The notes under the pieces were generated by a model that was given only the letters and a program-made list of their open reading frames with translations, had not been told where the DNA came from and did not search any database. From Denitrobacterium detoxificans (GTDB lineage Bacteria > Actinomycetota > Coriobacteriia > Coriobacteriales > Eggerthellaceae): a DNA stretch of 32,000 nt. The DNA is taken from contig NZ_CP011402.1 in NCBI RefSeq assembly GCF_001643775.1, positions 1,364,432 to 1,396,431 of the forward strand, written 5' to 3'. Both the position numbers and the translations under genes were made by a program. Of this stretch, positions 2,714 through 16,164 are shown in pieces. The first letter of the stretch is position 1, and the number at the start of each line of letters is the position of its first letter.

Positions 2714-3033
2714 TCCTATCCTTCCCGAGGAGGACGCAACCACAGTAGCTGGAGGCCCTTCCCCGCAGACACGGGCTATGTTGTGTTTTGAGGTAATTAT
2801 ACGCGCTCGATTGAAAACGGGGCAGCTGGGGCAATGCCTGTCACCCTACGGACACAAGCGCGTTCGGCGCGTATAGGCGCTAAAAATGGCATTTGGGCAA
2901 AAATAGCCCGCCCGATGTAAAAAATTCAACGCTGTACAGGTAAATCGGCTACGAGCGGCAACGTAAATGACTTCACGAAATAACTGACCTGGGGAAACAC
3001 AGGATCAGAACTATAGAAACGATCGAAATATTG

Positions 3034-4599
3034 GGCTCTTCGGTGGTTTCTGTGGGAGAGATTCCGGCATAGGCCCAGCTCAGCGGGCGAAAACAACGAT
3101 CTGGAACTGAAACGGCCCCGGGAGGGGCCGTTTCCGCGTCATCCGCCTATGATTGCTAAGCCAAATTCAGACAACCGAAGAGGTGTGACGCATGAAGAGT
3201 CTACTACTTCTCGCCCTCGGTCTGGCCCGCACGGTCGTCCTGGGCGCGCGCATCGAGGCCGAGCGCATCGTCGTGAGCGTCCGGCCCTACAAGCGCGAGC
3301 AGCGCCGCTGCCCCGTATGCGGCAGGGCCTGCGACTTCTACGACATGGCGAACCGCGGGGCCCCCAGGCTGTGGAGGGCGATGGACCTGGCGCGCTCGGC
3401 CTGCTACCTGGAGTACGCGCCCTGCAGGGTGCGCTGCCCGGAGCACGGCGTGCGCACCGAGGCCGTCCCCTGGGCGCGGCACGGGGCGCGCTTCACGCGT
3501 GACTTCGAGGACTGGGTGGCGTGGCTGGCGGTCCGCTGCACCGCCTCGGCGGTCTCCGAGCTCGCCCGCGTCGAGTGGCACAGCGTGGGCGGCGTGTGCA
3601 GGCGCGTCTACGCCGAGCTGGAGGCCGCGCGCGGCGCCTCGAGGTTCGACGGCGTGCGCCGCATCGGCATCGACGAGACGTCGTACAAGAAGGGCCACAA
3701 GTACGTCACGGTGGTCGTCGACCACGACCGCGGCTGCCTCATCTGGGCGCACGAGGGCACCGGCAAGGACGTGCTCAACCTGTTCCTCGACGAGCTCACG
3801 CGCGAGCAGAGGCGCGCCATAGAGGTGGTGACCGCCGACGGCGCGAGGTGGATAAGGCAGCTGGTCAAGCGCCGCTGCCCCAACGCGAGGTGGGTCATGG
3901 ACCCCTTCCACGTGGTCCAGTGGATGAACGACGCGCTCGACGCCGTGCGCTGCGAGGAGTGGAACGCCGCCAGGGCCGCCGCCAGGGCCGCCAGGCCCAG
4001 GCCCGAGGGCAAGCGCGGCAGGCCTGCCAAAGGCGAGCTGCCGCCCGAGGAGGTCAGGGCGCTCGAGGAGGAGGCGGCCTCCATCAAGGGCAGCCGCTAC
4101 GCGCTCGTGAAGAACCCCGAGGACCTCACCGACGGCCAGAGGGCGAGGCTCGAGGCGCTCAAGAAGAGGGCCGGCTCGCGGCTGGTCAGGGCCTGGGAGC
4201 TCAAGGAGGACCTGCGGGCCGTCTTCCGGGCAGCCGACGGCTCCGAGGCCGCCGAGCTGCTCGACGACTGGATGCACAGGGCCGCCTACTGCAAGATCGC
4301 CAAGGTCGTCGCCGTGGAGAAGAAGGTGCGCCGCCGGCGCGACGACATCATCGCCGCAGTCGAGCTCGGCATCAGCAACGGGCGCGTAGAGGCCATCAAC
4401 AACAAGATCAAGGTGACGGTGAGGATGGGCTACGGCTTCCGCAACACCGACAACCTCGTGGCCCTGCTCATGCTCAGGTGCGGCGACTGCCAGCCCCAGC
4501 TCCCGGGTCGCCCGGTGAAGGCGAGGAAGAAGGGCGTGAAGGGAGCGAAGAGCGTTGCTGCCTAGGCTAGCCCCTTGTCACACAAACTACCGAAGCCTC
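3034..4599 (+). mobile_element. ISL3-family insertion sequence (1566 bp) with imperfect terminal inverted repeats and an 8-bp target-site duplication
   Basis: Left end is GGCTCTTCGGTGGTTTCTGTGGGAG; reverse complement of the right end is GAGGCTTCGGTAGTTTGTGTGACAAG (18/27 match). It is flanked by direct AAATATTG at 3026-3033 and 4600-4607. Contains a single ISL3 transposase ORF. Confidence 0.87.
3192..4565 (+). CDS. ISL3 family transposase
   Basis: 457-aa ORF with an N-terminal zinc-finger region (CPVCG...CPEHG) and an ISL3-type DDE core (GIDETSYKKGHKYVTVVVD...). Much more GC-rich than its surroundings. Confidence 0.92.
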   Translation: MKSLLLLALGLARTVVLGARIEAERIVVSVRPYKREQRRCPVCGRACDFYDMANRGAPRLWRAMDLARSACYLEYAPCRVRCPEHGVRTEAVPWARHGARFTRDFEDWVAWLAVRCTASAVSELARVEWHSVGGVCRRVYAELEAARGASRFDGVRRIGIDETSYKKGHKYVTVVVDHDRGCLIWAHEGTGKDVLNLFLDELTREQRRAIEVVTADGARWIRQLVKRRCPNARWVMDPFHVVQWMNDALDAVRCEEWNAARAAARAARPRPEGKRGRPAKGELPPEEVRALEEEAASIKGSRYALVKNPEDLTDGQRARLEALKKRAGSRLVRAWELKEDLRAVFRAADGSEAAELLDDWMHRAAYCKIAKVVAVEKKVRRRRDDIIAAVELGISNGRVEAINNKIKVTVRMGYGFRNTDNLVALLMLRCGDCQPQLPGRPVKARKKGVKGAKSVAA

Positions 4600-4756
4600 A
4601 AATATTGCTTCGATAGCAGCCGCAACCTGTACAGCATTGATTATTTGCATATGATCGTCCGGTTTTCGCCCAATGACCCCAATATGACACAAATCACAGT
4701 TCCTCATCAGTGCACGGCAAGTCATGTCCACATTGCTGCGGGCCCTGTCGTGAGTC

Positions 4757-4843
4757 AAATTTGGCACCTACGTGCCGCCCCAAGGGCTTTTTAGGCTTAG
4801 CCGTTATTTTGACTCGTAGTGTTGTCCTGACTGGTAATCAAAC
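4757..4843 (-). ncRNA. tracrRNA-like RNA (type II-A style): anti-repeat, nexus and two 3' hairpins
   Basis: Minus strand reads GTTTGATTACCAGTCAGGACAACACTACGAGTCAAAATAACGGCTAAGCCTAAAAAGCCCTTGGGGCGGCACGTAGGTGCCAAATTT. The first ~40 nt are complementary to the 36-nt array repeat: 19 contiguous pairs with repeat positions 18-36, a lower stem with positions 1-7, and a 2-nt bulge. GAGTCAAAATAACGGCTAAGCC parallels S. pyogenes AAGTTAAAATAAGGCTAGTCC. GGCACGTAGGTGCC parallels GGCACCGAGTCGGTGC. The 5' and 3' ends are not determined. Confidence 0.65.
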
Positions 4844-4863
4844 GGAAGTGGAGGCGTGAGCGC

Positions 4864-5103
4864 ATGCTGACGTATTCGAAAATAGCAACCATGGGTCATA
4901 CTGCGCTTTTCGAGTATTATCCCGAGGGCGATACCTCAAAACCAGGTGTTGTATCCTTCGATTTCGATAGCGGGGAATGCGAAATCACTTGCTTAGCGGA
5001 TGGCGACCGTCATTCGCGATACGCCAACCATCTCGCTAATGCCTTAGAAAGCCAGCATGCTGGCGATGGGGTCGTTCCGTCGGGTACGATAATGTGGTAT
5101 TAA
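4864..5103 (+). CDS. Hypothetical small acidic protein (79 aa)
   Basis: ATG preceded by GGAGG at 9-nt spacing. Followed by a GC hairpin (5125-5140). No family recognised. Confidence 0.55.
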   Translation: MLTYSKIATMGHTALFEYYPEGDTSKPGVVSFDFDSGECEITCLADGDRHSRYANHLANALESQHAGDGVVPSGTIMWY

Positions 5104-5152
5104 AATTTTTCGAACAGGCTATGAGCCGCCTATGGGCGGCCGGAATGGCCAT

Positions 5153-5225
5153 TGGCACGCCACTGAAGAGTCGAACCCGATACGCGGCTTTGGAGGCCGA
5201 CGCTCTTCCATTGAGCTAGTGGCGT
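5153..5225 (-). tRNA. tRNA-Trp(CCA)-like element, probably a pseudogene or fragment
   Basis: Minus strand is ACGCCAC TA GCTC AATGGAA GAGC G TCGGC CTCCAAA GCCGC GTA TCGGG TTCGACT CTTCA GTGGCGT G CCA. It has a perfect 7-bp acceptor, a good D-arm, anticodon loop CUCCAAA and T-loop TTCGACT. The variable loop is only 3 nt, and the T-stem has one C-C mismatch and two G-U pairs. Confidence 0.4.
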
Positions 5226-5322
5226 ATGGTATAAAGATTGCGAAGGGTTCCCCCTCGGTCTTGGACGGAGGCTGGAACCCTTTCTCTGTTCTCGCTTTAT
5301 TCGACGTATCACCCCATCCTCG

Positions 5323-5358
5323 GTTTTGGAGCAGCGTCATTCTGACTGGTAATCAAAC
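5323..5358 (+). repeat. Array repeat 1 (consensus)
   Basis: Exact 36-mer. Confidence 0.95.
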
Positions 5359-5427
5359 GTTATGCGCGTATTTGATATACTACGCATGGAAGCCCCCACG
5401 ATTTACAACTGAGTCGCCGGGGCTTCT

Positions 5428-5670
5428 TCATTTTCTGATCACGTCAATCAAGTTTCCACTCTTATCAAGAATGGTCACCCAATCGAACTCCGCCGCATAC
5501 TCTTCGTTTTTGATCAGACCACGAATGGCTGCGCACAAGTCGGAATCGGTTATATGCAGAGACTCGTAGTTGTCGATCACGAGCCTCTTCATTCCTTTCT
5601 TGCCGATGGACTTATCAAAGTAATTCTTGACGGCACCATGAGCGTTTCGCGACGTAAGCAGCGTTTTCAT
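5428..5670 (-). CDS. Hypothetical protein (80 aa from MKTLL) inside inter-repeat segment 1
   Basis: Open frame ending ...IDVIRK. The TGA stop is embedded in the terminator stem GAAGCCCC(21 nt)GGGGCTTC (5389-5425). SD is weak. The frame stays open up to a TTG inside repeat 2 (5754), but no SD is there. Confidence 0.4.
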   Translation of the reverse strand: MKTLLTSRNAHGAVKNYFDKSIGKKGMKRLVIDNYESLHITDSDLCAAIRGLIKNEEYAAEFDWVTILDKSGNLIDVIRK

Positions 5671-5720
5671 CTCAATACCATTCAGCAATCGGCCGTCTTG
5701 TCCCAAATTACGCGACCATC

Positions 5721-5756
5721 GTTTTGGAGCAGCGTCATTCTGACTGGTAATCAAAC
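5721..5756 (+). repeat. Array repeat 2 (consensus)
   Basis: Exact 36-mer. Confidence 0.95.
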
Positions 5757-5882
5757 AGATTCGGGAAAGAAAAAGCCAGTTAGGTGAACCCTCAACTTAA
5801 GCGGGCCGCTAACTGGCTTGCCAAAAATATAACATTTTGAGCAATCGAATGAAAGCTTTGCATTCTTCTTATGGAGGGCAAG

Positions 5883-6108
5883 ATGAAGGTTCCTAACCGC
5901 GTCAACATCCTGGGCATCCCGTATGATGTCGTCTCTGACGATATGGAGACAATGAGGATGGCTTTATCTCTCCTCGTAGGCAAGTCATCATGTTGCGCAA
6001 GGGGCTGCCCCGCGAGAAGCGCGAGCAGACGTATCTGCACGAGCTGGTTCATGGCATCTTGGATCAGCTTGACTACTTGGAGCTGTACGAGGACGAGCAC
6101 CTGGTGCA
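5883..6108 (+). pseudogene. HExxH metallopeptidase fragment (ImmA/IrrE-like), frameshifted and cut off at the repeat
   Basis: GGAGG-5 nt-ATG, then MKVPNRVNILGIPYDVVSDD. After a frame change near 5939-5945 it continues YGDNEDGFISPRRQVIMLRKGLPREKREQTYLHELVHGILDQL... (HELVH at 6038-6052). The reading frame runs straight into repeat 3 at 6109, with unrelated sequence beyond. Confidence 0.55.
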
Positions 6109-6144
6109 GTTTTGGAGCAGCGTCATTCTGACTGGTAATCAAAC
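6109..6144 (+). repeat. Array repeat 3 (consensus)
   Basis: Exact 36-mer. Confidence 0.95.
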
Positions 6145-6281
6145 CGCGCCATCGCGCAGCCATACCCCTGGCGCGCGTGGTAGTCCACCTCGTGCCCGCA
6201 TCGGTCGAGCCGCCATAGGCTCTCGGACGTGGCACGCTATATGCGCCCATCGAACGTGGGCACCTCGATGAAAATGCGCAT
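6145..6281 (-). pseudogene. Possible RelE/HigB-like toxin gene fragment with an in-frame stop, cut off at the repeat
   Basis: GAAGG-5 nt-ATG (6281), then MRIFIEVPTFDGRI, TAG (6237-6239), and continuing open frame to the edge of repeat 3. The N-terminus resembles the MRFIETPVF... class of RelE-like toxins. The family call is tentative. Confidence 0.3.
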
Positions 6282-6398
6282 AATCACCTTCTAATCTAAT
6301 GTAAGTGGCGCTATAATGATTTAGGCGGTACTTGCCCGGTCATGGACGGGGTGTAGGCCGCTATCTTTTTACTCTAAGCATGCCCCTCTGCTTATCAG

Positions 6399-6434
6399 GT
6401 TTTGGAGCAGTGTCATTCTGACTGGTAATCAAAC
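6399..6434 (+). repeat. Array repeat 4 (C13T variant)
   Basis: 35/36 identical (GCAGTGTC instead of GCAGCGTC). Confidence 0.95.
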
Positions 6435-6561
6435 ATGAGAATGCGCATGTTGCTCCCTTAGGCATGAAAAAGCGCCTATGAAGTCGCTAAATTGCTTGAT
6501 ACATAAACTCTGTTTGATATAATTTATTCGAAGCCCGACGCGGCAACGCAGCGTCAGGGCT

Positions 6562-6888
6562 TCATTTGTTTTCCCATCTTGTAACGCTGCCGTCCTTTAA
6601 GGCAAAAAGGATTTCTTGAACATTCGAGTAATCAGACTCAGGATCACTCAACGATTCCTCAAAGTGTTTCAAGAATCGCTTGTCATTCATAGCGCTATCA
6701 AGATTGCTCAGAACAATCCTTAATCTGCTTTCCGCCTTTCGAAACTTTGTATCTGCTTTTGCTATATTGCCAGCAACCGCCAAATAGCCATTTCCATCAG
6801 GGCATTTTGCTTCCCAGAGTACACCGACAGCTCCTATAGCATAATCAAACTTCGGTTTTGGAGCAGTGTCATTCTGACTGCTAATCAA
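6562..6888 (-). CDS. Hypothetical protein (108 aa) whose first 11 codons lie in terminal repeat 5
   Basis: TTG start at 6886-6888 inside the repeat, preceded by a strong SD (GAGGAGGG, 6892-6899). Ends ...TRWENK, with its TGA embedded in the terminator GAAGCCCGACGC(6 nt)GCGTCAGGGCTTC (6530-6563). It may instead be a 5'-truncated fragment. Confidence 0.4.
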   Translation of the reverse strand: MISSQNDTAPKPKFDYAIGAVGVLWEAKCPDGNGYLAVAGNIAKADTKFRKAESRLRIVLSNLDSAMNDKRFLKHFEESLSDPESDYSNVQEILFALKDGSVTRWENK

Positions 6889-6890
6889 AT
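6855..6890 (+). repeat. Array repeat 5, degenerate terminal repeat
   Basis: 33/36 identical (C13T, G27C, C36T). Decay at the 3' end is as expected for a leader-distal terminal repeat. Confidence 0.9.
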
Positions 6891-6949
6891 ACCCTCCTCG
6901 ACCTTACATACGCACTTCCCTACGGAAAGACCCTGGGCGCTGAAGCCCG

Positions 6950-7225
6950 TCATGTGGGGCGATATGGCCTAACGCCAAAGTCAACCTCGATGATGCGCCC
7001 GCAATATCTGGGCTTGGCGGGAGCAGGAATCGGACCGGGCTCGCGCTGCCCCATCTCGGCAGCCTTCGGAGCAATCACCGTCTGGAACCAGCCGCAACAT
7101 CCGCAGTGCCACACTGCCCCATCCCACGTAAGTTCCAACGGCCTAAGCTCGAGGCGGTGCCCACATCTGGGACACATGTGCGGCTGTCTCGATATCGCCT
7201 TGAAATAGGGGCTCAGCTCCAGCAT
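6950..7225 (-). CDS. Zinc-ribbon protein (91 aa)
   Basis: ATG at 7225 preceded by GGGAGGTG. Has CPRCG...CGCCG cysteine pairs. The ORF-track version (to 7483) lacks an SD at its start. Confidence 0.55.
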   Translation of the reverse strand: MLELSPYFKAISRQPHMCPRCGHRLELRPLELTWDGAVWHCGCCGWFQTVIAPKAAEMGQREPGPIPAPAKPRYCGRIIEVDFGVRPYRPT

Positions 7226-7633
7226 ACGCCCACCTCCCACTCGTTTGATTGTCAGCCAAAATGACTCCGTTGAATACAAATGGCCCGAATCGTCAATATC
7301 GAAAGCCGCCCTTACTTCTGCATCTTCAGAAGGTCCTTCAGGATCATTAACGGAGTCGCAAGAATAAGCAGAATCGCATACCCTGCAAAGGAAGGGTCGC
7401 CCGACCCACCAAAAAAGACATTCCCTTTGCCAAGCCTTCGTTTGCGTGAACGATTCAAACCAAAAGATGGTCGTTATGAGCATCGTAGCCCAGACAACTC
7501 ATTCACGCGTCCATCATGTAGGACACGCAAACAGCCAAATGCAAATACACTTTTCATCAGGAAGGATGCAATTTCAAACGAAGGGCAATGGCCCTAGCAC
7601 TGCCGCGCAACGAGGAACGGGAGGGAAACGATA

Positions 7634-7699
7634 ATGGCAATATTCGCACTACTTACTGCGCCAGCAATGATCATCTCGGTGTTTGCGTTATGCGCCTAG
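7634..7699 (+). CDS. Candidate 21-aa hydrophobic micropeptide (MAIFALLTAPAMIISVFALCA)
   Basis: Not in the ORF track (too short). ATG preceded by GGGAGGG at 8-nt spacing. Composition fits a single TM helix. Confidence 0.3.
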   Translation: MAIFALLTAPAMIISVFALCA

Positions 7700-7756
7700 C
7701 AGAACTCATGGGTCGAGCCAACCAACCCAGGAAGCAAACCCCACGTCAATAGCGTA

Positions 7757-7785
7757 TTGACACCTCAACCATCGCATTATATTCT
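7757..7785 (+). promoter_or_regulatory. Candidate sigma-70-type promoter (TTGACA-17 nt-TATTCT)
   Basis: Consensus -35 at 7757-7762 and a -10-like hexamer at 7780-7785, about 50 nt upstream of the membrane-protein gene. Confidence 0.35.
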
Positions 7786-7836
7786 AATCATGTGTTTTTT
7801 GCGTTTATTTGGGGTACAAGGAAGGTAGGTAGCGAA

Positions 7837-8280
7837 ATGGAACGCAGTGGAAGTCAGAAGGTGTTGTTGGTACTGTCCATCATCGAGATTATAGGCGCCG
7901 CGTTGTCCCTTATTACGGGCATCCTGTTCTTCGTAGGTGCAGGCGCGGTGCTATCCGATGCAAGCGTCGTCGCGGGAACAGGCGCCACTCAGGGCCAAGC
8001 AGCCGGTATTTTCGTAATCCTATCGTGTATTCTCATTGTCGAGGGTATCTGGAGCCTCCTGTGCGGCATCTTCGGCGTTCGCGCCGCCAACGATAACCAG
8101 AAGATCATGATCGTTTGGGTCTTCTGCCTCATTGGCGTGATCATGGCAATCATTGGCATCATCGCAGCCATCGTAAACGGCCAGTTCGGCAGCCAAGTTT
8201 GGTCGCTCGTTTGCTCGCTGGCAGTCTCGGGCATCATGTTCTTCATCGCCAACAACATCAAGAAGGAAGCCGGCAAGTAA
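7837..8280 (+). CDS. Hypothetical integral membrane protein (147 aa, about 4 TM helices)
   Basis: ATG at 7837 preceded by GGAAGGTAGG. Four long hydrophobic segments. Followed by a hairpin plus T-run. Confidence 0.75.
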   Translation: MERSGSQKVLLVLSIIEIIGAALSLITGILFFVGAGAVLSDASVVAGTGATQGQAAGIFVILSCILIVEGIWSLLCGIFGVRAANDNQKIMIVWVFCLIGVIMAIIGIIAAIVNGQFGSQVWSLVCSLAVSGIMFFIANNIKKEAGK

Positions 8281-8305
8281 GACTAACCACTTACACAGGC
8301 ATCAT

Positions 8306-8360
8306 CCAGCACCCTGCCTTCGTCGAATCCGACAGCCAGAAGGGAGGGTGCTGGTTTTTA
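8306..8360 (+). terminator. Intrinsic terminator-like hairpin
   Basis: CCAGCACCCT (8306-8315) pairs with AGGGTGCTGG (8345-8354), followed by TTTTTAT. The loop is long (29 nt). Confidence 0.5.
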
Positions 8361-8398
8361 TCACCCACACTAGGGCAAACAAGTCGAAAGGATGACCC

Positions 8399-9079
8399 AT
8401 GAATTACGAGATCGTTGGAGAACCGTATCCGGCAGTCGTATGCCATCTGCAGCGCGGAGAGCAAATGAAAACTGAAAAGGGCTCCATGGTGTGGATGGAC
8501 CCCGTCATGAAGATGGAAACCAACACCGGGGGTGGAGGAATCGGCAAGATGTTCGGACGCATGCTATCAGGTGAGAGCATGTTCCAAAACGTCTACACGG
8601 CGGAAAGCGACGGTATGATCGCGTTCGGATCGAGCTTCCCCGGCCAGATCCTTCCCATCGAGATTCAACCTGGTCAGGATTTCATCGCGCAGAAGATGGC
8701 GTTTCTGGCATCCGAGATGGGCGTAACGCTCGACACGTTCTTCAACCAGAAGCTCAGTGGCGGCTTCTTCGGCGGCGAAGGCTTCATCATGCAGCGCCTG
8801 AGCGGCCAGGGCATGGTATTCCTCGAGTGCGACGGATCGCTCGTTCGCTACGAGCTTGCCGCCGGCCAATCCATGGTAGTCGACACGGGCAACGTACTCG
8901 GATTCACGGGCGGCGTAAATCTACGCGTAGAGAGAATTCAAGGCGCAAAGAACGTCATGTTCGGCGGCGAAGGCCTCTTCAACACGGTGCTCACCGGCCC
9001 GGGCACGGTCTACCTGCAAACGATGCCGCTCGCCAACCTCGTCGACGTGATTGCGGCCCATATGCCTAAGACAGACTAA
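8399..9079 (+). CDS. TIGR00266/AIM24 (DUF124) family protein
   Basis: 226 aa with the characteristic family sequence (MNYEI.G..Y..v...L..GE....E.GSMVWMD...GGFFGGEGF..Q.L.G.G.VFL...G). Confidence 0.9.
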   Translation: MNYEIVGEPYPAVVCHLQRGEQMKTEKGSMVWMDPVMKMETNTGGGGIGKMFGRMLSGESMFQNVYTAESDGMIAFGSSFPGQILPIEIQPGQDFIAQKMAFLASEMGVTLDTFFNQKLSGGFFGGEGFIMQRLSGQGMVFLECDGSLVRYELAAGQSMVVDTGNVLGFTGGVNLRVERIQGAKNVMFGGEGLFNTVLTGPGTVYLQTMPLANLVDVIAAHMPKTD

Positions 9080-9153
9080 ATCGAAGCGCTCTGAACAAGC
9101 GTAGACAAGCATTATCACGCAACGCGAGCACGAAACTCGCCCAAACAAGCAGG

Positions 9154-9196
9154 GCCAGCTAGCAACCAAGCATCGTAAGGGGTTCGGCTAGCTGGC
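9154..9196. terminator. Hairpin between convergent genes
   Basis: GCCAGCTAGC (9154-9163) pairs with GCTAGCTGGC (9187-9196), followed by TTTGTTCTG. Lies between the TIGR00266 gene and the radical SAM gene. Confidence 0.4.
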
Positions 9197-9210
9197 TTTG
9201 TTCTGCCCGC

Positions 9211-10041
9211 CTATACATTACCCAATAGGACCGTATGCAAGTGACGCTCGGCTACGCTGGCCAGCTCATGCAGCGTAGCGATGGGCGTAGGAGGCACATC
9301 ACTCATACGGTGCTGCGGGAAGAAACGCGTAAGATGGTACGGGATGGCGGGGTCGAGCGATGCAAGCCACTGCGCCATTTCCTCTATCTGTTCTGCATCA
9401 TCGGAAAGCCCAGGCACTACGAGCGTAGTTACCTCCAGATGGCACGTAGGCAATGCGGCCAGCAACTCAATCGTACGCTTCACCGTACCCAAATCGCCAC
9501 TGAGCTTGCGGTAACCCTCCGCAGTAAAGCATTTCAAGTCGATGTTGGCAGCATCCACGAAGGGGGCAATCTGCTCCACCACCTGCTCGCTCGCGAACCC
9601 ATTGGAAACGAGTACGTTCACCAATCCCGCTTCGTGCGCCAACGCGGCCGTATCGCGCAGGAACTCCCACGTCACAAGCGGCTCGTTATACGTGTACGCA
9701 ACACCAACGCACCCGCGATCGCGCAGGCCGCACGCAGCGTGCACAACCTCTTCGGGCGTTACCTCGCGCCAAGGCACCCCAGTCGCATCCACTTGCGCAA
9801 TCGAGGCGTTCTGGCAAAACGGGCAATGCATGTTGCAGCCGTAGCTGCCCAGGGAAAGCACGGTACTCCCCTGTTTCCAGTGGGCAATCGGCTTCTTCTC
9901 GATAGGGTCGAGCGCCAGCGACGTAATGCGCCCGTACCCTTCGGGCGCCACCACGCCATCGATGCAGCGACGAGAACGACATGCCCCCAGCGCACCCTCG
10001 GCAAGGGAACACGCATGGGGGCATGTCGAGCATATTGTCAC
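9211..10041 (-). CDS. AmmeMemoRadiSam system radical SAM enzyme (AmrS-like)
   Basis: 276 aa. N-terminal Cys cluster (CSTCPHAC...GAC), DPIEKKP motif, and radical SAM CNMHCPFCQN (CxxxCxxC). Confidence 0.85.
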   Translation of the reverse strand: MTICSTCPHACSLAEGALGACRSRRCIDGVVAPEGYGRITSLALDPIEKKPIAHWKQGSTVLSLGSYGCNMHCPFCQNASIAQVDATGVPWREVTPEEVVHAACGLRDRGCVGVAYTYNEPLVTWEFLRDTAALAHEAGLVNVLVSNGFASEQVVEQIAPFVDAANIDLKCFTAEGYRKLSGDLGTVKRTIELLAALPTCHLEVTTLVVPGLSDDAEQIEEMAQWLASLDPAIPYHLTRFFPQHRMSDVPPTPIATLHELASVAERHLHTVLLGNV

Positions 10042-10047
10042 GGCTAG

Positions 10048-11727
10048 TTAGTCACGCGTGAGCTTACGATGCAGGCGATGCGGCTTGGCGGCTTCGGGCC
10101 CCAAGCGACGAACACGGTCTTCCTGGTAGCCTTCGAAGTTGCCCTCGTACCAGTACCATGCACCCGGATTCTCGTCGGTACCTTCCCAAGCCAGAATATG
10201 CGTGGCAACACGGTCGAGGAAGAAGCGGTCGTGGCTGGTGATGACAGCGCAGCCGCTGAACTCGTTCAGCGCCTCTTCCAGGCTGGAAAGCGATTCGGTG
10301 TCCAGGTCGTTCGTGGGCTCGTCGAGCAGCAGCAGGTTGCCGCCCTGCTTCAAGGTAAGAGCCAGGTTCAAGCGGTTGCGCTCGCCACCGGAAAGCACGC
10401 CTGCGGGCTTCTGCTGGTCGCTGCCCTTGAAGCCATACGCCGCCACATATGCGCGCGAAGGCACCTCGGTGCCAGCTACGTTCATGTAGTCCAGACCATC
10501 CGACACGACTTCCCAGACCTTCTTATTGGGATCGATGCCGGCACGGTTCTGATCGACATAGGAAAGCTGAACGGTAGAGCCCAGCTCGAGCGTGCCGCTC
10601 GTGGGAGCCTCCTCGCCCACGATCATGCGGAAGAGCGTCGTCTTGCCCACGCCATTCGGGCCGATGACGCCCACGATGCCATTGCGCGGCAGGCTGAACG
10701 ACAGGTCATCGATGAGCACGCGGTCGCCGAATTCCTTGTGCAGATGCTCGGCTTCCAGCACCTTGTTGCCCAAGCGCGGACCAGCAGGAATGTGAATCTC
10801 GGTGAAGTCGACATTCTTGCGCGCAGCGGATTCGGCCACCATCTTCTCGTAGGCCGCCAAACGCGCCTTGCCCTTGGCCTGACGGGCCTTCGCGCCACTG
10901 CGCACCCATTCCAGCTCGGCCTTCATCTTCTTGGCGCGCTTCTTGTCCTGTGCACCCTCGAGCTCCAAACGCGCAGCCTTGGTTTCCAGATACGTGGAGT
11001 AATTGCCCTTGTAGGGATACAGCGTGCCGCGGTCGACCTCGCAAATCCACTCGGCTACATGGTCGAGGAAGTAACGGTCGTGCGTGACGGCCAAGACGGC
11101 ACCGGGATACTTCGCCAGGAACTGTTCGAGCCACAGAACCGATTCGGCATCCAGGTGGTTGGTGGGTTCGTCGAGCAGAAGCAGGTCGGGAGATTCCAGC
11201 AGCAAGCGGCACAGGGCCACGCGACGACGCTCGCCACCCGAAAGCACCTTCACAGGAGCGTCGGGGTCGGGGCACTGCAGCGCATCCATAGCCTGCGAAA
11301 GCTGCGAATCCAGATCCCAACCATTAACGGCATCGATGGCGTCCTGAAGCTTGCCCATTTCCGCCATGAGCGCATCGAAATCGGCATCGGGCATGGCCAT
11401 TTCCGCCGAAATCTCGTTGAAGCGCGCCACATTGGCAAGCGTTTCGGCAAAGGCCTGCTCGACGTTCTCGCGAACTGTCTTGTCATCATCGAGCGCGGGA
11501 TCCTGCTGAAGCAGACCCACGGTGTAGCCAGGCGTAAGGCGTGCCTCGCCGTTGCTGACCTCTTCCAGGCCCGCCATGATCTTCAGCAGCGTGGACTTGC
11601 CCATGCCGTTCGGACCAACGACGCCAATCTTCGCGCCAGGATAGAACGCAAGCGTAACGTCGTCCAAGATGACCTTGTCGCCATGCGCCTTGCGCGCCTT
11701 TTCCAGCGTGTAAATGAATTCAGCCAC
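10048..11727 (-). CDS. ettA: ABC-F ATPase, energy-dependent translational throttle EttA
   Basis: Two ABC cassettes (GPNGMGKST, GPNGVGKTT, two LSGGE signatures). EttA-type N-terminus (M)AEFIYTLEKARKAHG from GTG at 11725-11727, preceded by GGAGG-5 nt. The 823-aa ORF-track version is an upstream run-on. Confidence 0.93.
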   Translation of the reverse strand: MAEFIYTLEKARKAHGDKVILDDVTLAFYPGAKIGVVGPNGMGKSTLLKIMAGLEEVSNGEARLTPGYTVGLLQQDPALDDDKTVRENVEQAFAETLANVARFNEISAEMAMPDADFDALMAEMGKLQDAIDAVNGWDLDSQLSQAMDALQCPDPDAPVKVLSGGERRRVALCRLLLESPDLLLLDEPTNHLDAESVLWLEQFLAKYPGAVLAVTHDRYFLDHVAEWICEVDRGTLYPYKGNYSTYLETKAARLELEGAQDKKRAKKMKAELEWVRSGAKARQAKGKARLAAYEKMVAESAARKNVDFTEIHIPAGPRLGNKVLEAEHLHKEFGDRVLIDDLSFSLPRNGIVGVIGPNGVGKTTLFRMIVGEEAPTSGTLELGSTVQLSYVDQNRAGIDPNKKVWEVVSDGLDYMNVAGTEVPSRAYVAAYGFKGSDQQKPAGVLSGGERNRLNLALTLKQGGNLLLLDEPTNDLDTESLSSLEEALNEFSGCAVITSHDRFFLDRVATHILAWEGTDENPGAWYWYEGNFEGYQEDRVRRLGPEAAKPHRLHRKLTRD

Positions 11728-11814
11728 GAAAACCTCCGTGCTAATAGAGCGGTATTGCGTTAATTTGTTTATTGTACAAGACGAATGTCGAATTCGCTTG
11801 AAACGGAGGCGCTT

Positions 11815-13236
11815 ATGTCGATCGTTGGAGCAATTGTCGTACCGCATCCGCCACTTATCGTTCCCGCCGTTGGGCGCGGCGAGGAGCAACGCATCGGCGA
11901 AACCATTGACGCATATAAGCGCGCAACAAAATGGCTGCTCAGCCAGCAGCCCGATTGCCTGGTTATCACCTCGCCGCACGCGCCGCTGTTTCGCGACGCG
12001 TTTCACGTAACCACCGATGACGTCCTCGAGGGAAGCATGGCCCAATTCCGCGCGCCGCAAGAGCACATGAGCGCGGAATGCAATACCGAACTGGCGCGAG
12101 AAATCATCAGCAGGGCAAACGATGCAGGAATCCCAGCCATTGGCAGCGAGCGCTATCGCGACGACATGGATCACGCCACCTACGTGCCGCTCTACTTCGT
12201 GCGCGAAGCCGCCGGCGGCATGCTTCCCTGCCCCATCGTTCGCATTGGGCTTTCCGGCATGCCGTACGACACGCACCGCCAATTGGGGCGCATCATCGCA
12301 CAAGCGGCAAGCGCGCAGGGCATCAAAGTAGGATTCATTGCCAGCGGAGACCTTTCGCACAAGCTGAAACCCGACGGTCCCTATGGTTTCGCACTCGAAG
12401 GCCCTGTATTCGACGAGCGCATTGGCGAGATATTCGCATCGGGTAACCTCGATGGCCTCTTCGAGCTCGACGAGGCATTCTGCGAAGCTGCCGCCGAATG
12501 CGGACTCCGATCGTTCCAAATCATGGCGGGCGCCCTAGACGGCCTGAGCGTGCATACGGAATTGCTCTCGAACGAAGGGCCGTTTGGCGTAGGCTACGGA
12601 GTAGCCATCTGCAAATGCGAAAGCACGACAAATTGCGACGCCCATGCAGGTAAACGCGATGCGGACAACGACCACCTTCACAGTGCCAATCCGCCCACCG
12701 AGGCCGACCCAATCGTACGCCTTGCGCGCCTAACGGTCGAAACGTTCACGCGCACGGGCCGCGCGCCCAATCTACCTGACGATCTGCCGCAAGAGCTCCT
12801 GGAACGGAAGGCGGGCGTATTCGTAACGATTCACAAGCGGGGCGCTTTACGCGGCTGCATAGGCACCATCTCACCCACATGCAGCAACATTGCGGAGGAA
12901 GTCATACAGAACGGGATTAGCTCCAGCAGTCGTGACCCACGCTTCCCAGCCATACGCGAGGAGGAACTCGATTACCTGGAGTATTCGGTCGACGTATTGG
13001 GCGAAGCAGAGCCCATCGACTCGCCCGAACAGCTTGACCCGAAGCGCTACGGCGTCATCGTTGCGAAACGTTGGCAACGCGGGCTACTGCTCCCGAACCT
13101 CGAGGGCGTAGAGACGATTGAGTCTCAGGTCTCGATCGCCAAGCAAAAAGCGGGCATAGACCCAGCAGACAACGACGTTGAACTTGCGCGCTTCGAAGTC
13201 GTGCGCCATTCCGCCGGCGGAGAGGCACGCAGATAA
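11815..13236 (+). CDS. Fusion protein: class III extradiol dioxygenase/Memo-like (LigB superfamily) domain plus AMMECR1 domain (AmmeMemoRadiSam system protein A-like)
   Basis: ATG at 11815 preceded by GGAGG-5 nt. N-terminal half has VPHPPLIVP...GDLSH (LigB/Memo-like). C-terminal half has the AMMECR1 signature ...GALRGCIGT...RDPRFP. Confidence 0.85.
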   Translation: MSIVGAIVVPHPPLIVPAVGRGEEQRIGETIDAYKRATKWLLSQQPDCLVITSPHAPLFRDAFHVTTDDVLEGSMAQFRAPQEHMSAECNTELAREIISRANDAGIPAIGSERYRDDMDHATYVPLYFVREAAGGMLPCPIVRIGLSGMPYDTHRQLGRIIAQAASAQGIKVGFIASGDLSHKLKPDGPYGFALEGPVFDERIGEIFASGNLDGLFELDEAFCEAAAECGLRSFQIMAGALDGLSVHTELLSNEGPFGVGYGVAICKCESTTNCDAHAGKRDADNDHLHSANPPTEADPIVRLARLTVETFTRTGRAPNLPDDLPQELLERKAGVFVTIHKRGALRGCIGTISPTCSNIAEEVIQNGISSSSRDPRFPAIREEELDYLEYSVDVLGEAEPIDSPEQLDPKRYGVIVAKRWQRGLLLPNLEGVETIESQVSIAKQKAGIDPADNDVELARFEVVRHSAGGEARR

Positions 13237-13450
13237 TTCGACGCACCAGACATCATCGCCGAACGCATCCACGCGCAACACACGTACGTCCACTACCACG
13301 CACCGTTCGCGGGTTGAAAGGCTAACGAGCGAAACGAAACGCTACCAATCGAGCCCAACGAGAAGCTATAATCCAGCACTAGAGAGGCGCGGAACGGACG
13401 CGCGCAATGCCCGGAGGCGCAAGCCTTCGAAAACGAGGGAGGCGGTCGCA

Positions 13451-13648
13451 ATGTGCTTTAGGCCATCACCTGTATCCAGCTCAAACGACAACATCAACCA
13501 GGGAACATGCCCTACATGCGGAATGCCCGTCGCCGCAGAAGCGGGCACCACAAGCGGAACGTGCCCCTATTGCGGAGAACCCATTCCCCCCAATGATTCC
13601 GGCCAGGGCGGAATTTCCGATGATCCGAAGAACGTGCGCATCTTGTAG
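13451..13648 (+). CDS. Small zinc-ribbon protein (65 aa)
   Basis: GGGAGG-8 nt-ATG. Has CPTCG...CPYCG. A TATAAT hexamer sits at 13364-13369. The gene is followed by the terminator that the IS3 element split. Confidence 0.4.
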   Translation: MCFRPSPVSSSNDNINQGTCPTCGMPVAAEAGTTSGTCPYCGEPIPPNDSGQGGISDDPKNVRIL

Positions 13649-13723
13649 CCGTTCGACACGCAGCGAAAGGGCAGCCAGGGACGATGAACTGCGCCCCAAA
13701 ACTTGGACGCGATAAATAAGAAC

Positions 13724-14581
13724 CTAGGCGGCTTGGGACTGGCTCCGGAACTCCTCCGGGGTCAGTCCCTTTAGTTTAACTTGCCTCCTCTGCGTGTTCC
13801 AGTACTCGATGTATCCCTCAAGCTCCCTCTTGAACGTCTCGAAGTCGGGGAACTTTCTGCCTCGGAAGAACTCGTCTTTCAAATGGCCGAACACCTGCTC
13901 GGTCGCGCCGTTGTCGATGCAGTTGCCCTTACGTGACATGCTCTGCACGATGCCTGCCTCCTCGAGCCTTCCGCAATACCCTATGTGCTGGTACTGCCAG
14001 CCCATGTCCGACTGCATGACCGGGTGAGCACCGTCCGGAATCTTCGGGATGAGCATGTCGAGCATCTCCTTCTGCTGCGACATGTCCGGGTGCTGGGATA
14101 TGGACCACGCCGCGATCTCCTTGCTGCCGAAGTCGTAGACGGGCGCGAAGTACGCCTTGCCCCATTCCTGCTTGAACTCGGTGACGTCGGTGCCAAGCTT
14201 CTGCCACGGCCCATCTGCCTCGAAGTCGCGCCCCAGCACGTTCTCGAAGGTCTTGCCGACCACGCCCTTGTAGGAATTGTACTTGTGGTAGTCCGTCTCC
14301 CGGCGTATGCCGCAGCTTATTCCTATCTCGTGCATCATCTTGAGCACGGTCTTGTCGGCGATCGTCGCCCCTTCCTCGGCGCGCAGGCACATGGCTATCT
14401 GGCGATGGCCGCAGCCGTTTGGCGAGCGCGAGAAGATCTCGATCGCCTTGCCCCAAAGCTCCGGCCTGGTCGGCGCCTTGGCCGGCTTCGACTTGTTGTA
14501 GTGGTAAGTCGATGCTGGAACGCCCGACACGGCCAGTAGGTCCGCAAGCGCGTGCCCCTGCCCCGAAAGCTCCCTGATCAC
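13724..14581 (-). CDS. IS3 family transposase OrfB (DDE integrase core), expressed as an OrfAB fusion by -1 frameshifting
   Basis: 285-aa rve-type catalytic domain (...WQKLGTDVTEF...SDMGWQY...GNCIDNGATE). The orfB frame is open upstream to the A7 slippery run. Confidence 0.9.
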   Translation of the reverse strand: MIRELSGQGHALADLLAVSGVPASTYHYNKSKPAKAPTRPELWGKAIEIFSRSPNGCGHRQIAMCLRAEEGATIADKTVLKMMHEIGISCGIRRETDYHKYNSYKGVVGKTFENVLGRDFEADGPWQKLGTDVTEFKQEWGKAYFAPVYDFGSKEIAAWSISQHPDMSQQKEMLDMLIPKIPDGAHPVMQSDMGWQYQHIGYCGRLEEAGIVQSMSRKGNCIDNGATEQVFGHLKDEFFRGRKFPDFETFKRELEGYIEYWNTQRRQVKLKGLTPEEFRSQSQAA

Positions 14582-15081
14582 CTGGCATTTCTCCCAGGCG
14601 CTCGCTTTGCCGCTTCCAGGGCACGCAGTTTTTTTAGGTACGCCACCTCGGCCCTTAGCCTGCGGTTCTCCGCCTCCAGCTCCTGTTCGCGGCTCCTTGG
14701 TTCCGGAGGGTCACCCCCGTCTTTCCGCGGCCGCCCCTTCGGCTTGGGCCTCAGGGCCTCCGGACCGCCCTCGCGGTAGGCCTTCGCCCAATTCTTCAGC
14801 TGCGTCAGGTTCGCGATTCCGTGCTTGGACATGACCTCCTGCCTGGTCATGCCGAGGTCGACGAAGTCGCGCGCGGCGGCGAGCTTCGTCTCGTAGTCGT
14901 AACGCCTGTGCTTGGACCCCATGCCCAGAAACGCCTCCTTGCCTACCGCCCTGTACGTGTGGGTCCATTTTTCCGCAATGCTTATCGGTATGGCAAGCGC
15001 TGTCGAGAGCGACCCCTTGCCATATCCTCGGTCGATGAGCTCGACCGCCCTTGCTCTCGTCTCCAGGCTGTATCTCTTCAA
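14578..15081 (-). CDS. IS3 family transposase OrfA (HTH domain plus leucine zipper)
   Basis: 167-aa ORF with helix-turn-helix regions and a coiled-coil C-terminus (ELEAENRRLRAEVAYLKKLRALE) typical of IS3 OrfA. Confidence 0.9.
   Translation of the reverse strand: MKRYSLETRARAVELIDRGYGKGSLSTALAIPISIAEKWTHTYRAVGKEAFLGMGSKHRRYDYETKLAAARDFVDLGMTRQEVMSKHGIANLTQLKNWAKAYREGGPEALRPKPKGRPRKDGGDPPEPRSREQELEAENRRLRAEVAYLKKLRALEAAKRAPGRNAR
14629..14635 (-). promoter_or_regulatory. Programmed -1 ribosomal frameshift site (A AAA AAA C)
   Basis: Seven A residues on the minus strand within the orfA codons CTA AAA AAA. A -1 slip joins ...AYLKK to TACPGSGKASAWEKCQVIRELSGQGH... in the orfB frame. Confidence 0.6.
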
Positions 15082-15183
15082 AACGAAACTGCACCTCCCG
15101 AACTCGGACTTTCTTTTCCTAGTCCAAATTCGGGGGTGCAGTTCACGATTTCCTGGCTGCCCTTTTATCTGCGCACCACGAAA

Positions 15184-16164
15184 CTACTGCACGGGCTGAA
15201 CGGGAGCGTTCGCCGTCTCCCAGACGTTATAGGCGCTCACGATTTCCGAAACGAGCGAATGGCGCACGATATCGGTGCGCGAAAGCTCGCAGAATGCGAT
15301 GTCTGAAATGCCCTCCAAGATACCACGCACCTGCTTCAGTCCGGAAATGCCACGCGGCAGGTCGAGCTGCGTAACATCACCCGTCACCACCATCTTCGAG
15401 GCGAAACCCAAGCGCGTAAGGAACATCTTCATCTGCTGCGGCGTGGTGTTCTGCGCCTCGTCGAGCACGATGAAGCTGTTATCGAGCGTGCGGCCGCGCA
15501 TGTAGGCAAGCGGCACGATCTCGATGGTGCCGTCTTCCAGATACGCCTGCGCGCGCTGGGGATCCATCATCTCGAACAGAGCATCGTACAAGGGGCGAAT
15601 ATACGGGTCAATCTTCTCGTTCAGCGTGCCCGGCAAGAAGCCAAGGTTCTCGCCCGCTTCCACCACGGGACGCGAGAGAATAACGCGGCTGACCTCGTGC
15701 GAACGCAGTGCGCGAACGGCCATGGCCATGGCAAGATACGTCTTTCCCGTACCAGCAGGCCCAATACCAAAGGTGATGGTGTTCTTGCGAATGGCATCGA
15801 CGTAATGCTTCTGACCAGCCGTCTTGGGGCGAACGGAACGCCCACGATGCGAAAGCACCACGTCGTCACGCAAGGCACGCGGGGCGAATTCACCCGTGCG
15901 AAGCAATTCGATGGCATGCTTCACGTACGCGCGATTGGGCACGCCACCTTCGCGGACATACTGAAAAAGGTCGGTGAACAGCGAAGATACGGCGTCTACT
16001 TCGACCTGCTCGCCCGAGATGCGCACGCTATTTCCGCGCACGAGAATCTGGGCATGATAGCAATCTTCGATAAAGCGCAGAATGTCGTCTTGCGGACCCA
16101 CCACCTTTGCCATATCGACAGTGTCGGGGGCGGTAAGCGAAACGCTCGTTTCCATATCTGTCAT
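15184..16164 (-). CDS. phoH: PhoH family ATPase
   Basis: 326 aa, Walker A GPAGTGKTYLAMA, PhoH-like C-terminus. ATGA overlap with the mtaB stop. Confidence 0.93.
   Translation of the reverse strand: MTDMETSVSLTAPDTVDMAKVVGPQDDILRFIEDCYHAQILVRGNSVRISGEQVEVDAVSSLFTDLFQYVREGGVPNRAYVKHAIELLRTGEFAPRALRDDVVLSHRGRSVRPKTAGQKHYVDAIRKNTITFGIGPAGTGKTYLAMAMAVRALRSHEVSRVILSRPVVEAGENLGFLPGTLNEKIDPYIRPLYDALFEMMDPQRAQAYLEDGTIEIVPLAYMRGRTLDNSFIVLDEAQNTTPQQMKMFLTRLGFASKMVVTGDVTQLDLPRGISGLKQVRGILEGISDIAFCELSRTDIVRHSLVSEIVSAYNVWETANAPVQPVQ

Follow-up and report, generated by a model that had tools for sequence, protein, structure and literature searches.

A tracrRNA-like segment of Denitrobacterium detoxificans as the probable relic of a type II-A CRISPR-Cas locus

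What does a tracrRNA-like segment represent in a chromosomal region without cas genes? This question is raised by a locus of Denitrobacterium detoxificans, a rumen bacterium of the Eggerthellaceae, in which an initial annotation had recognised a tracrRNA gene on the minus strand and a CRISPR array near it. The stretch of DNA analysed here, referred to as the window, is 32 kb long. Cas9, Cas1, Cas2 and Csn2 were absent from the 32-kb window, as judged by tblastn with the proteins of a related intact locus (L014) and by Pfam searches, and no cas genes were present on the contigs of two conspecific strains (L050 and L066). In the window and on these contigs, the segment was therefore not encoded in or next to a cas9 operon. 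The Hungate1000 supplements contained no CRISPR typing for D. detoxificans.

The repeats and their surroundings

In the window, the genes recO, era, dgkA and ybeY lie 5' of the tracrRNA-like segment. An ISL3 element is followed by the segment, by a unit of 479 nt and by five repeats with long inserts. Beyond the repeats are small ORFs and AIM24, radical-SAM and ABC-F genes, with housekeeping genes farther along; comEC is also encoded in the window. In every D. detoxificans strain seen, the site lay on the chromosome, flanked by ybeY and housekeeping genes. The ISL3 element was considered as the cause of the cas gene loss and rejected, as strains free of it were equally cas-less. The features of the locus are as follows.

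3034-4599: ISL3 element, with an 8-bp target duplication (AAATATTG)
4728-4747, minus strand: truncated intrinsic terminator, with the 5' arm CAGGGCCC and loop GCAGCAAUGU left and the 3' arm GGGCCCUG and UUUUG run gone
4752-4759, minus strand: UUUGACUC, 3' strand of a long-range helix, pairing with GAGUCAAA (4808-4815)
4763-4776, minus strand: hairpin 2, GGCAC-GUAG-GUGCC, from folding; four of five pairs with compensatory changes
4777-4787, minus strand: hairpin 1, GCCC-UUG-GGGC, from folding; three of four pairs with compensatory changes
4793-4803, minus strand: nexus-like hairpin C-GGC-UAA-GCC-U, from folding; kept in homologues
4806-4843, minus strand: chimeric anti-repeat, of which 4825-4843 is identical to repeat nt 18-36 and apparently repeat-derived, and 4806-4824 is canonical (GGACAACACUACGAGUCAAAAU)
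4844-5322, unstranded: first long unit (U0), standing where intact loci have the promoter of the tracrRNA, cas9, cas1, cas2, csn2 and the leader
4864-5103, plus strand: 79-aa ORF in U0
5153-5225, minus strand: tRNA-Trp gene in U0
5323-5358, plus strand: CRISPR repeat 1 (GTTTTGGAGCAGCGTCATTCTGACTGGTAATCAAAC, 36 nt)
5721-5756, plus strand: CRISPR repeat 2
6109-6144, plus strand: CRISPR repeat 3
6399-6434, plus strand: CRISPR repeat 4, with the C13T variant
6855-6890, plus strand: degenerate terminal repeat, with 3 mismatches
5359-5720, 5757-6108, 6145-6398 and 6435-6854, unstranded: four further long units of heterogeneous DNA, partly gene fragments

The 19-nt core of the repeat was found at 47 loci in species-representative genomes, almost all of them from Coriobacteriia and many of them regular arrays. 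Arrays of this kind lay downstream of cas9 (about 1380 aa)-cas1-cas2-csn2 in L014, L019, L022 and L041, and likewise in L058-L063 and L073; in L014, L019, L022, L062 and L073 the repeats of these cas-linked arrays were identical or near-identical to those of the window. Judged by these comparisons, the window repeat is a genuine type II-A CRISPR repeat. The array of the initial annotation was not a normal CRISPR array. The same repeat is separated by spacers of 29-31 nt in relatives, while the five repeats of the window are 290-456 nt apart from start to start and not about 66 nt, with gaps of 362, 352, 254 and 420 nt in addition to the 479 nt that follow the tracrRNA-like segment. Tandem Repeats Finder reported no array in the window.

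The long units had little in common. Across loci they ranged from 235 to 1854 nt, with full repeats on both sides, no common termini and a GC content of 33-68%. Truncated genes were frequent in them, including HipA-like, Fic and phage head-morphogenesis-like genes, part of a hydrogenase, a tRNA-Asp gene cut down to its 5' half and part of a member of a phage protein family. In the window, unit 5757-6108 carried the 5' portion of a phage gene, disrupted by a frameshift, with one weak match to a phage family (Pfam, PHROGs). Viral contigs were scanned with ORFs from 5359-5720, from 6435-6854 and from a unit of L042, which gave nothing close, and a protein search with the ORF of 6435-6854 returned only the self-match. 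Integron-like cassettes were rejected as an explanation of the units, which lack common ends and often contain truncated genes. Prophage stumps left by an integrase of the type found on viral contig L001 were also rejected, since these would leave half-repeat hybrids and not full repeats.

Intervals in cas9-adjacent arrays were almost always short (251 short, 2 long), whereas arrays headed by a tracrRNA/repeat chimera had 9 short and 22 long intervals. Part of this enrichment may be explained by slippage, through which close repeats would be lost once selection stops while distant ones persist. Arrays with inserts of hundreds of bases are thus enriched in cas-less loci and merit a survey of their own. 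Long units were also observed in the cas-linked array of L042.

Relationship to tracrRNA genes encoded beside cas9

The minus strand from 4843 to 4757 reads GTTTGATTACCAGTCAGGACAACACTACGAGTCAAAATAACGGCTAAGCCTAAAAAGCCCTTGGGGCGGCACGTAGGTGCCAAATTT, and that of 4752-4843 reads GTTTGATTACCAGTCAGGACAACACTACGAGTCAAAATAACGGCTAAGCCTAAAAAGCCCTTGGGGCGGCACGTAGGTGCCAAATTTGACTC. The pairing initially described was reproduced exactly, with 19 contiguous pairs to repeat nt 18-36, an interrupted middle and seven pairs to nt 1-7; the lower-stem partner, UCAAAAU, lies inside the canonical half of the anti-repeat (4806-4824). The duplex energy calculated with RNAduplex was -34.9 kcal/mol, compared with -12.5 +/- 3.0 for 1000 shuffled anti-repeats (best shuffle -23.2), a distance of 7 sd. 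The C13T variant strengthened the duplex to -38.8 kcal/mol. The anti-repeat is hence complementary to an array repeat of the same genome, with the qualification that part of the match appears to be recombined-in repeat DNA. In the cas9-adjacent loci of relatives, duplexes with their own repeats had energies of -36 to -49 kcal/mol, and the window value was weaker than all of them.

The nexus and the hairpins GCCC-TTG-GGGC and GGCAC-GTAG-GTGCC folded as originally described. A further element, absent from the initial annotation, is a long-range helix between GAGUCAAA and UUUGACUC, which encloses the nexus and both hairpins and closes the scaffold. The proposed resemblance to the S. pyogenes tracrRNA was also borne out, with a global alignment score of 63, compared with 23 +/- 7 for shuffles. 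The order of modules is the same as in S. pyogenes-type tracrRNAs, where the anti-repeat, divided by a bulge into a lower and an upper stem, precedes an AAAAUAA-nexus and 3' hairpins. The segment had no match in Rfam, neither at the gathering threshold nor at E <= 10, and at gathering thresholds only the tRNA was found in the window. This result says little, because other lineages supplied the sequences for the tracrRNA model of Rfam.

A homologous RNA was identified 30-130 nt upstream of cas9, and divergent from it, in seven type II-A loci of Coriobacteriia (L014, L058, L059, L060, L062, L072 and L073), the arrays of which use the same repeat family. Loci L058-L063 were fetched via Cas9 homologues and L073 via a metagenome scan, and the sequence of L072 stops within cas1. 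The order in intact loci is the terminator, the tracrRNA and its promoter, all read leftwards, followed by cas9, cas1, cas2 and csn2, the leader and the array. This divergent placement upstream of cas9-cas1-cas2-csn2 is shared with S. pyogenes. A scan of metagenomes with the tracrRNA tail gave two further loci, both cas9-adjacent. A covariance model that included the anti-repeat matched every CRISPR repeat, and only its five input copies were confirmed.

Thirteen copies were aligned over about 100 nt, comprising the seven cas9-adjacent copies and six from cas-less loci (the window, the conspecific strains L050 and L066, and L011, L033 and L048 from other lineages). For the long-range helix, the nexus and hairpins 1 and 2, 91.6% of cells were paired, compared with 24-44% after the partners had been slid by 1-3 columns. 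Eight pairs had changed on both sides, a number reached in none of 500 shuffles. Both hairpins were supported by covariation, as was the long-range helix, in which 91% of cells were paired and the closing pair covaried between G-C, A-U and G-U. The nexus stem was nearly invariant (G42-C50, G43-C49 and C44-G48 retained in 12-13 of the 13 homologues). The window thus retains a conserved Cas9-binding scaffold homologous to that of cas9-linked tracrRNAs, and on this alignment the segment is a true homologue of type II-A tracrRNA genes. It can be regarded as a degenerate addition to the known tracrRNA class, a cas-less fossil that still looks competent for pairing. The Coriobacteriia family differs from S. 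pyogenes-type tracrRNAs in its additional scaffold-closing helix, in a separate terminator hairpin and in the lack of an Rfam match.

The chimeric junction and the loss of the cas operon

The two groups of copies differed at their 5' ends. All six cas-less copies started with GTTTGATT[A/G]CCAGTCAG and then passed into a canonical anti-repeat; their start is identical to the 3' end of the repeat in reverse complement. The seven cas9-adjacent copies started with TCTTGAT, TTTCGAT or GTTCTGAT, which match the repeat end imperfectly, and GTTTGATT was present in none of them. After the junction, the window continues with the canonical sequence GGACAACACTACGAG, compared with GGACAACACTGCGAG in cas9-adjacent L073. 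The association of GTTTGATT with cas-less loci is partly built into the sampling, as the cas-less copies outside D. detoxificans were found with a pattern demanding the exact repeat core; the lack of GTTTGATT in the seven cas9-adjacent copies is independent of this bias.

At the DNA level, the 19-nt anti-repeat core is a sixth copy of the repeat, in direct orientation with the other five. The perfect 19-nt match, as read from the aligned copies, is repeat DNA recombined onto a tracrRNA gene, and thus a recombination scar and not an evolved anti-repeat. The chimera would have to be regarded as a native allele if intact cas9-bearing loci had the tracrRNA start GTTTGATTACC directly downstream of the promoter. 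In L011, a 29-nt spacer and then regular repeats come after the chimera, which so stands in register as the first repeat. The distal array of the cas-less locus L033 is 96% identical to that of L042, which has cas1-cas2-csn2; upstream of one repeat common to both, L033 carries nothing but the chimera and a 2.2-kb segment of unrelated DNA. The cas-less copies belong to four lineages, whose tracrRNA variants are each close to different canonical ones; this indicates that the event recurred independently.

The ends of the transcription unit were also altered. An extended -10 box (TGnTAnnnT) was present 6-9 nt upstream of the anti-repeat in seven of seven cas9-adjacent copies and at that position in none of the six cas-less copies; in the window, unrelated DNA replaces the canonical promoter. 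Every cas9-adjacent copy has a terminator hairpin and T-run at its 3' end. The terminator is complete in L066 (CAGGGCCC-GCAGCAATGT-GGGCCCTG-TTTTG), while in the window and in L050 its 3' arm and T-run were removed by a deletion of approximately 79 nt between short direct repeats. The promoter and terminator of a discrete small RNA are therefore both missing from the window copy, the -10 box being absent and the 3' arm and T-run deleted in comparison with L066. The initial annotation had named as weak points that no promoter could be found and that only UUU followed the last hairpin; both are real, because the promoter is replaced and the terminator half deleted. Changes in hairpin 2 of the sister strains were uncompensated, with a lost pair in L066 and a G-U in L050.

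Taken with the absence of cas genes, these features suggest that the segment is an inactive relic, formed when the anti-repeat recombined with one of the array repeats, and we assign this reading a probability of about 0.7. The layout of intact loci would offer a route for such an event, since their anti-repeat DNA is directly oriented relative to every array repeat, with a common stretch of 9-27 bp. In an ancestor of D. detoxificans, the anti-repeat would have recombined with an array repeat. A crossover in the common stretch would yield the chimera and delete exactly what lies between, namely the promoter of the tracrRNA with its start of transcription, all four cas genes, the leader and, presumably, the proximal array. 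The event may have been homologous, microhomology-mediated, or the work of a phage integrase using this core as its att site. At only about 9-10 bp, the common stretch of the window chimera is short for a RecA substrate. The terminator would have been halved later by the deletion of approximately 79 nt, leaving the chimeric site, the scaffold, the halved terminator and a residual array of repeats with long inserts.

The claim of a tracrRNA gene therefore stands as far as homology is concerned, but the window copy differs from S. pyogenes-type genes in being without cas9, promoter and terminator, and is probably not a working gene of a CRISPR-Cas locus. Most likely, the window does not give rise to a discrete tracrRNA and the RNA is without function, because promoter, terminator and a nearby Cas9 are lacking. 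The divergence from the array, initially likened to S. pyogenes, is correct in orientation, but seems to arise only because the intervening cas operon is gone. The Cas9-binding scaffold of the window is still fully intact and its long-range helix includes a compensated G-C pair, so either the loss was recent or some constraint persists.

Orphan CRISPR arrays, in which the cas genes have been lost and the repeats kept, are among the closest known counterparts. With the array collapse described in Neisseria (PMC12477760), the proposed event shares a deletion between directly repeated units of 36 nt; it differs in that the partner here would be the tracrRNA anti-repeat, and in that the whole cas operon and leader would be excised, leaving a tracrRNA/repeat chimera as the scar. 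In a search of the literature on these themes, no description was found of excision between anti-repeat and repeat or of spacers of such length.

Alternative readings and implications

A second reading places the role of the locus at the DNA level. The chimera and the repeats would be recombination sites at which long segments are swapped, by a phage-type integrase or by repeat-mediated homologous recombination, with the tracrRNA tail as a passenger. As the sole account of the locus this is rather unlikely, and it is compatible with a relic and not an alternative to it. Conspecific strains do differ by whole repeat-bounded units, the order being U0-U1-U2-U3-U4 in the window, A-B-C-D-U1-U2-U4 in L050 and U0-U1-X in L066. 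The repeat identity at the junction is 19 nt in the window and 27 nt in L050 and L066, so that a single simple ancestral deletion is not the whole story. Among the D. detoxificans contigs, no single tree accommodates the first unit, the junction type and the terminator deletion together. These three conflicting characters indicate that the locus has recombined repeatedly between strains, and such repeated exchange speaks for this second reading. The chimera was kept in every D. detoxificans contig seen, a point against the relic.

Suitable agents of exchange also exist. PhiAP1.1 integrates into the type II-A CRISPR repeats of S. pyogenes (Varble et al., bioRxiv 10.1101/2020.10.09.333658). On viral contigs L001 and L002, an integrase gene is followed by ATGACTGGTAATCAAAC and then by a spacer and a repeat; the att core of these integrases (TGACTGGTAATCAAAC) equals the 3' 16-17 nt of the repeat, is integrated in arrays and also forms the repeat-derived part of the chimera. 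This arrangement implies that phages of these bacteria integrate at this core, which is thus a live recombination site. In Neisseria, no more than one repeat is needed for homologous recombination with an array already resident (PMC12477760), and the window encodes comEC, as noted above. Against discrete cassettes, the units lack conserved termini, vary in GC content from 33 to 68% and contain many truncated genes. The window differs from PhiAP1.1-type integration in having no prophage and no integrase: neither was found in the 32-kb window, and the inserts are bordered by full 36-nt repeats, whereas an integrase should leave att hybrids of half repeats.

That the segment is a functional orphan tracrRNA appears quite unlikely. 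Such an RNA would be expressed from a cryptic promoter in the neighbouring unit or by read-through, would pair with transcripts of the five repeats and would act with a Cas9 whose gene lies in another part of the genome, in defence or in regulation of the scaRNA/tracr-L type. The intact nexus, hairpins and long-range helix, the strong duplex with the repeat and the presence of the locus in all D. detoxificans contigs seen are consistent with it. At a distance of 35 nt upstream of the segment is a motif resembling an extended -10 box (TGCTATTTT, at 4879-4887 on the minus strand), kept in L066 as TGATATTTT, from which a 5'-extended transcript could possibly start. The missing cas genes, in 32 kb and on the conspecific contigs, the lost canonical promoter, the half-deleted terminator and the uncompensated mutations in hairpin 2 of the sister strains argue against function, and guides derived from 'spacers' of 254-479 nt would be arbitrary. 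The scan of species-representative genomes gave no D. detoxificans contig with the core, a weak point against this reading, as the region of the window was evidently masked there.

Phage-borne mimics of CRISPR RNAs, namely solitary repeats (Racr) and viral sgRNAs (bioRxiv 10.64898/2026.06.01.729453), likewise place a CRISPR RNA component away from cas9. The present locus differs from these in being chromosomal and in having no cis repeat:anti-repeat hairpin, and a scan of viral contigs did not detect its tracrRNA tail. A phage-borne tracrRNA decoy was dropped as a candidate, as viral contigs were without this tail. Lastly, that the segment resembles a tracrRNA by chance, or belongs to a plus-strand terminator with no relation to CRISPR, is extremely improbable: GCCCCAAGGGC followed by TTTTT does resemble a weak terminator, but a terminator scan gave no call there, strains free of the IS have no plus-strand gene ending upstream, since ybeY is on the minus strand, the duplex energy is far beyond that of shuffles, and the alignment of about 100 nt with covariation to RNAs beside cas9 in seven loci rules out the terminator reading, which the initial annotation had named as a possible refutation.

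The inactive relic, as the preferred reading, has a consequence for annotation, namely that passing the in silico tests for a tracrRNA (anti-repeat, nexus, hairpins) is compatible with a dead relic. For the evolution of CRISPR systems, the data point to a simple and recurrent route by which a whole type II-A cas operon can be lost. This route is built into the layout of the locus, because the anti-repeat is directly oriented with the repeats. Loss of the cas genes could matter where immunity is costly, as in self-targeting or the blocking of useful mobile elements.

A broader proposal for the type II-A systems of Coriobacteriia is more tentative. The tracrRNA gene may serve as a built-in excision site for the recurrent and precise removal of cas9-cas1-cas2-csn2, with chimeras in at least four lineages. 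The leftover arrays, and some cas-linked ones, might then gain, lose and exchange 'giant spacers' of 0.25-1.9 kb of phage or chromosomal DNA by an undescribed route, for example through the integration of long fragments by Cas1-Cas2, or when incoming DNA recombines at a repeat that serves as anchor. Recurrent tracrRNA-mediated excision of cas genes, together with giant-spacer arrays, would form a wider pattern in this class that may be of further interest.

Long segments between the CRISPR repeats

Between the CRISPR repeats of the window (4844-6890), heterogeneous DNA segments were found where spacers of 30 nt would be expected. Long inter-repeat segments were likewise present in L011 (a cas-less copy in another lineage), L013/L016, L029, L035, L042 (an array with cas1-cas2-csn2) and L050 (a cas-less conspecific contig), with sizes across the loci of 235-1854 nt. 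Their content comprised gene fragments, tRNA genes and pieces of phage and chromosome; full repeats stood on both sides, and the termini had no sequence in common. The cas-less arrays held 22 long and 9 short intervals, compared with 2 long and 251 short in the arrays adjoining cas9, which is a strong enrichment of long segments in the cas-less arrays. Lancefieldella rimae ATCC 49626, whose array is cas-linked, also has long segments.

Features of the repeat-bounded units and of related viral contigs
5153-5225, minus strand: tRNA-Trp gene (38 bits in Rfam), located in the first repeat-bounded unit
L001 14540-14625 and L002 459-1110: viral contigs with an integrase gene and a core shared with the repeat

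Strain L050 lacks the first unit of the window and hence its tRNA-Trp copy, which is therefore probably accessory; this copy is possibly of phage origin. At L022, a cas-linked locus of the same repeat family, the unit at 7083-7479 has the 5' half of a tRNA-Asp at its end, truncated exactly at the repeat.

The two viral contigs are prophage-like. In both, a tyrosine-integrase gene is followed by ...ctgattATGACTGGTAATCAAAC, which equals the 3' 16-17 nt of the repeat; a full repeat comes next, separated from this core by a 30-nt spacer or by a unit of 606 nt. Phages of the Atopobiaceae and Eggerthellaceae thus use this CRISPR repeat as attB, resembling PhiAP1.1 of S. pyogenes, for which a CRISPR repeat serves as attB (bioRxiv 10.1101/2020.10.09.333658).

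Strain differences and chromosomal setting

Three conspecific strains were compared (window 4701-4843, L050 4630-4772 and L066 5681-5823). Three characters were distributed incompatibly among them: how far repeat identity extends in the tracrRNA chimera, whether the terminator carries the deletion, and which unit stands first. This conflict indicates that inter-strain recombination at the repeats occurred repeatedly.

Mobile elements and other features of the window
3034-4599: ISL3-family insertion sequence (457-aa transposase; 72% GC)
13724-14581: IS3-family transposase, within the ybeY-phoH segment
27050-29416: comEC

The CRISPR remnant lies within a segment of ~12.5 kb (2744-15184) with ybeY on one side and phoH on the other, two genes that are usually neighbours. 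Other genes of this segment encode an AIM24-family protein, a radical-SAM protein, an ABC-F ATPase and an AMMECR1/LigB fusion. The ISL3 element, about 100 nt from the tracrRNA remnant, lies between two copies of AAATATTG (3026-3033 and 4600-4607), an 8-bp target duplication. It was missing from both conspecific contigs, L050 and L066, so its insertion in the window is recent, and it was ruled out as the cause of cas loss.

Sequences adjoining the array

Features beside the chimera and past the terminal repeat
4864-5103, plus strand: 79-aa ORF adjoining the chimera
7242-7265, plus strand: degenerate inverted partial repeat copy, CGTTTGATTGTCAGCCAAAATGAC, inside the 6950-7483 ORF

No match to the 79-aa ORF was obtained in Pfam or PHROG. 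Its homologues (L021 5527-5763, 35% identity; L048 175-423, 30%) occur at two further loci of the same repeat family, each next to an array or a tracrRNA relic, in differing orientations. A small protein that recurs in this setting could be an anti-CRISPR or have an accessory role; coincidence could also account for the pattern.

About 350 nt past the terminal repeat, CGTTTGATTGTCAGCCAAAATGAC is complementary to repeat nt 14-36 at 20/24 positions, a match too good for chance. The trailer 3' of the terminal repeat (6891-7790) is 87-93% conserved in another Eggerthellaceae genome (L046 2677-3001), where it adjoins a solitary repeat. A small gene of a canonical cas9-adjacent locus (L062 1494-1678), 2 kb from the tracrRNA there, shares 72% identity with part of the window's zinc-ribbon ORF (7041-7225).

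A long-range helix in the tracrRNA homologues

4808-4815 with 4752-4759, minus strand: long-range helix, conserved in all 13 tracrRNA homologues

In this helix of 8-9 bp, anti-repeat sequence of the lower stem (GAGUCAAA) pairs with the segment 3' of hairpin 2 (UUUGACUC/UUG). In free tracrRNA, the bases for pairing with the 5' end of the crRNA repeat would be tied up in the helix, which may be auto-inhibitory or belong to the Cas9 scaffold.
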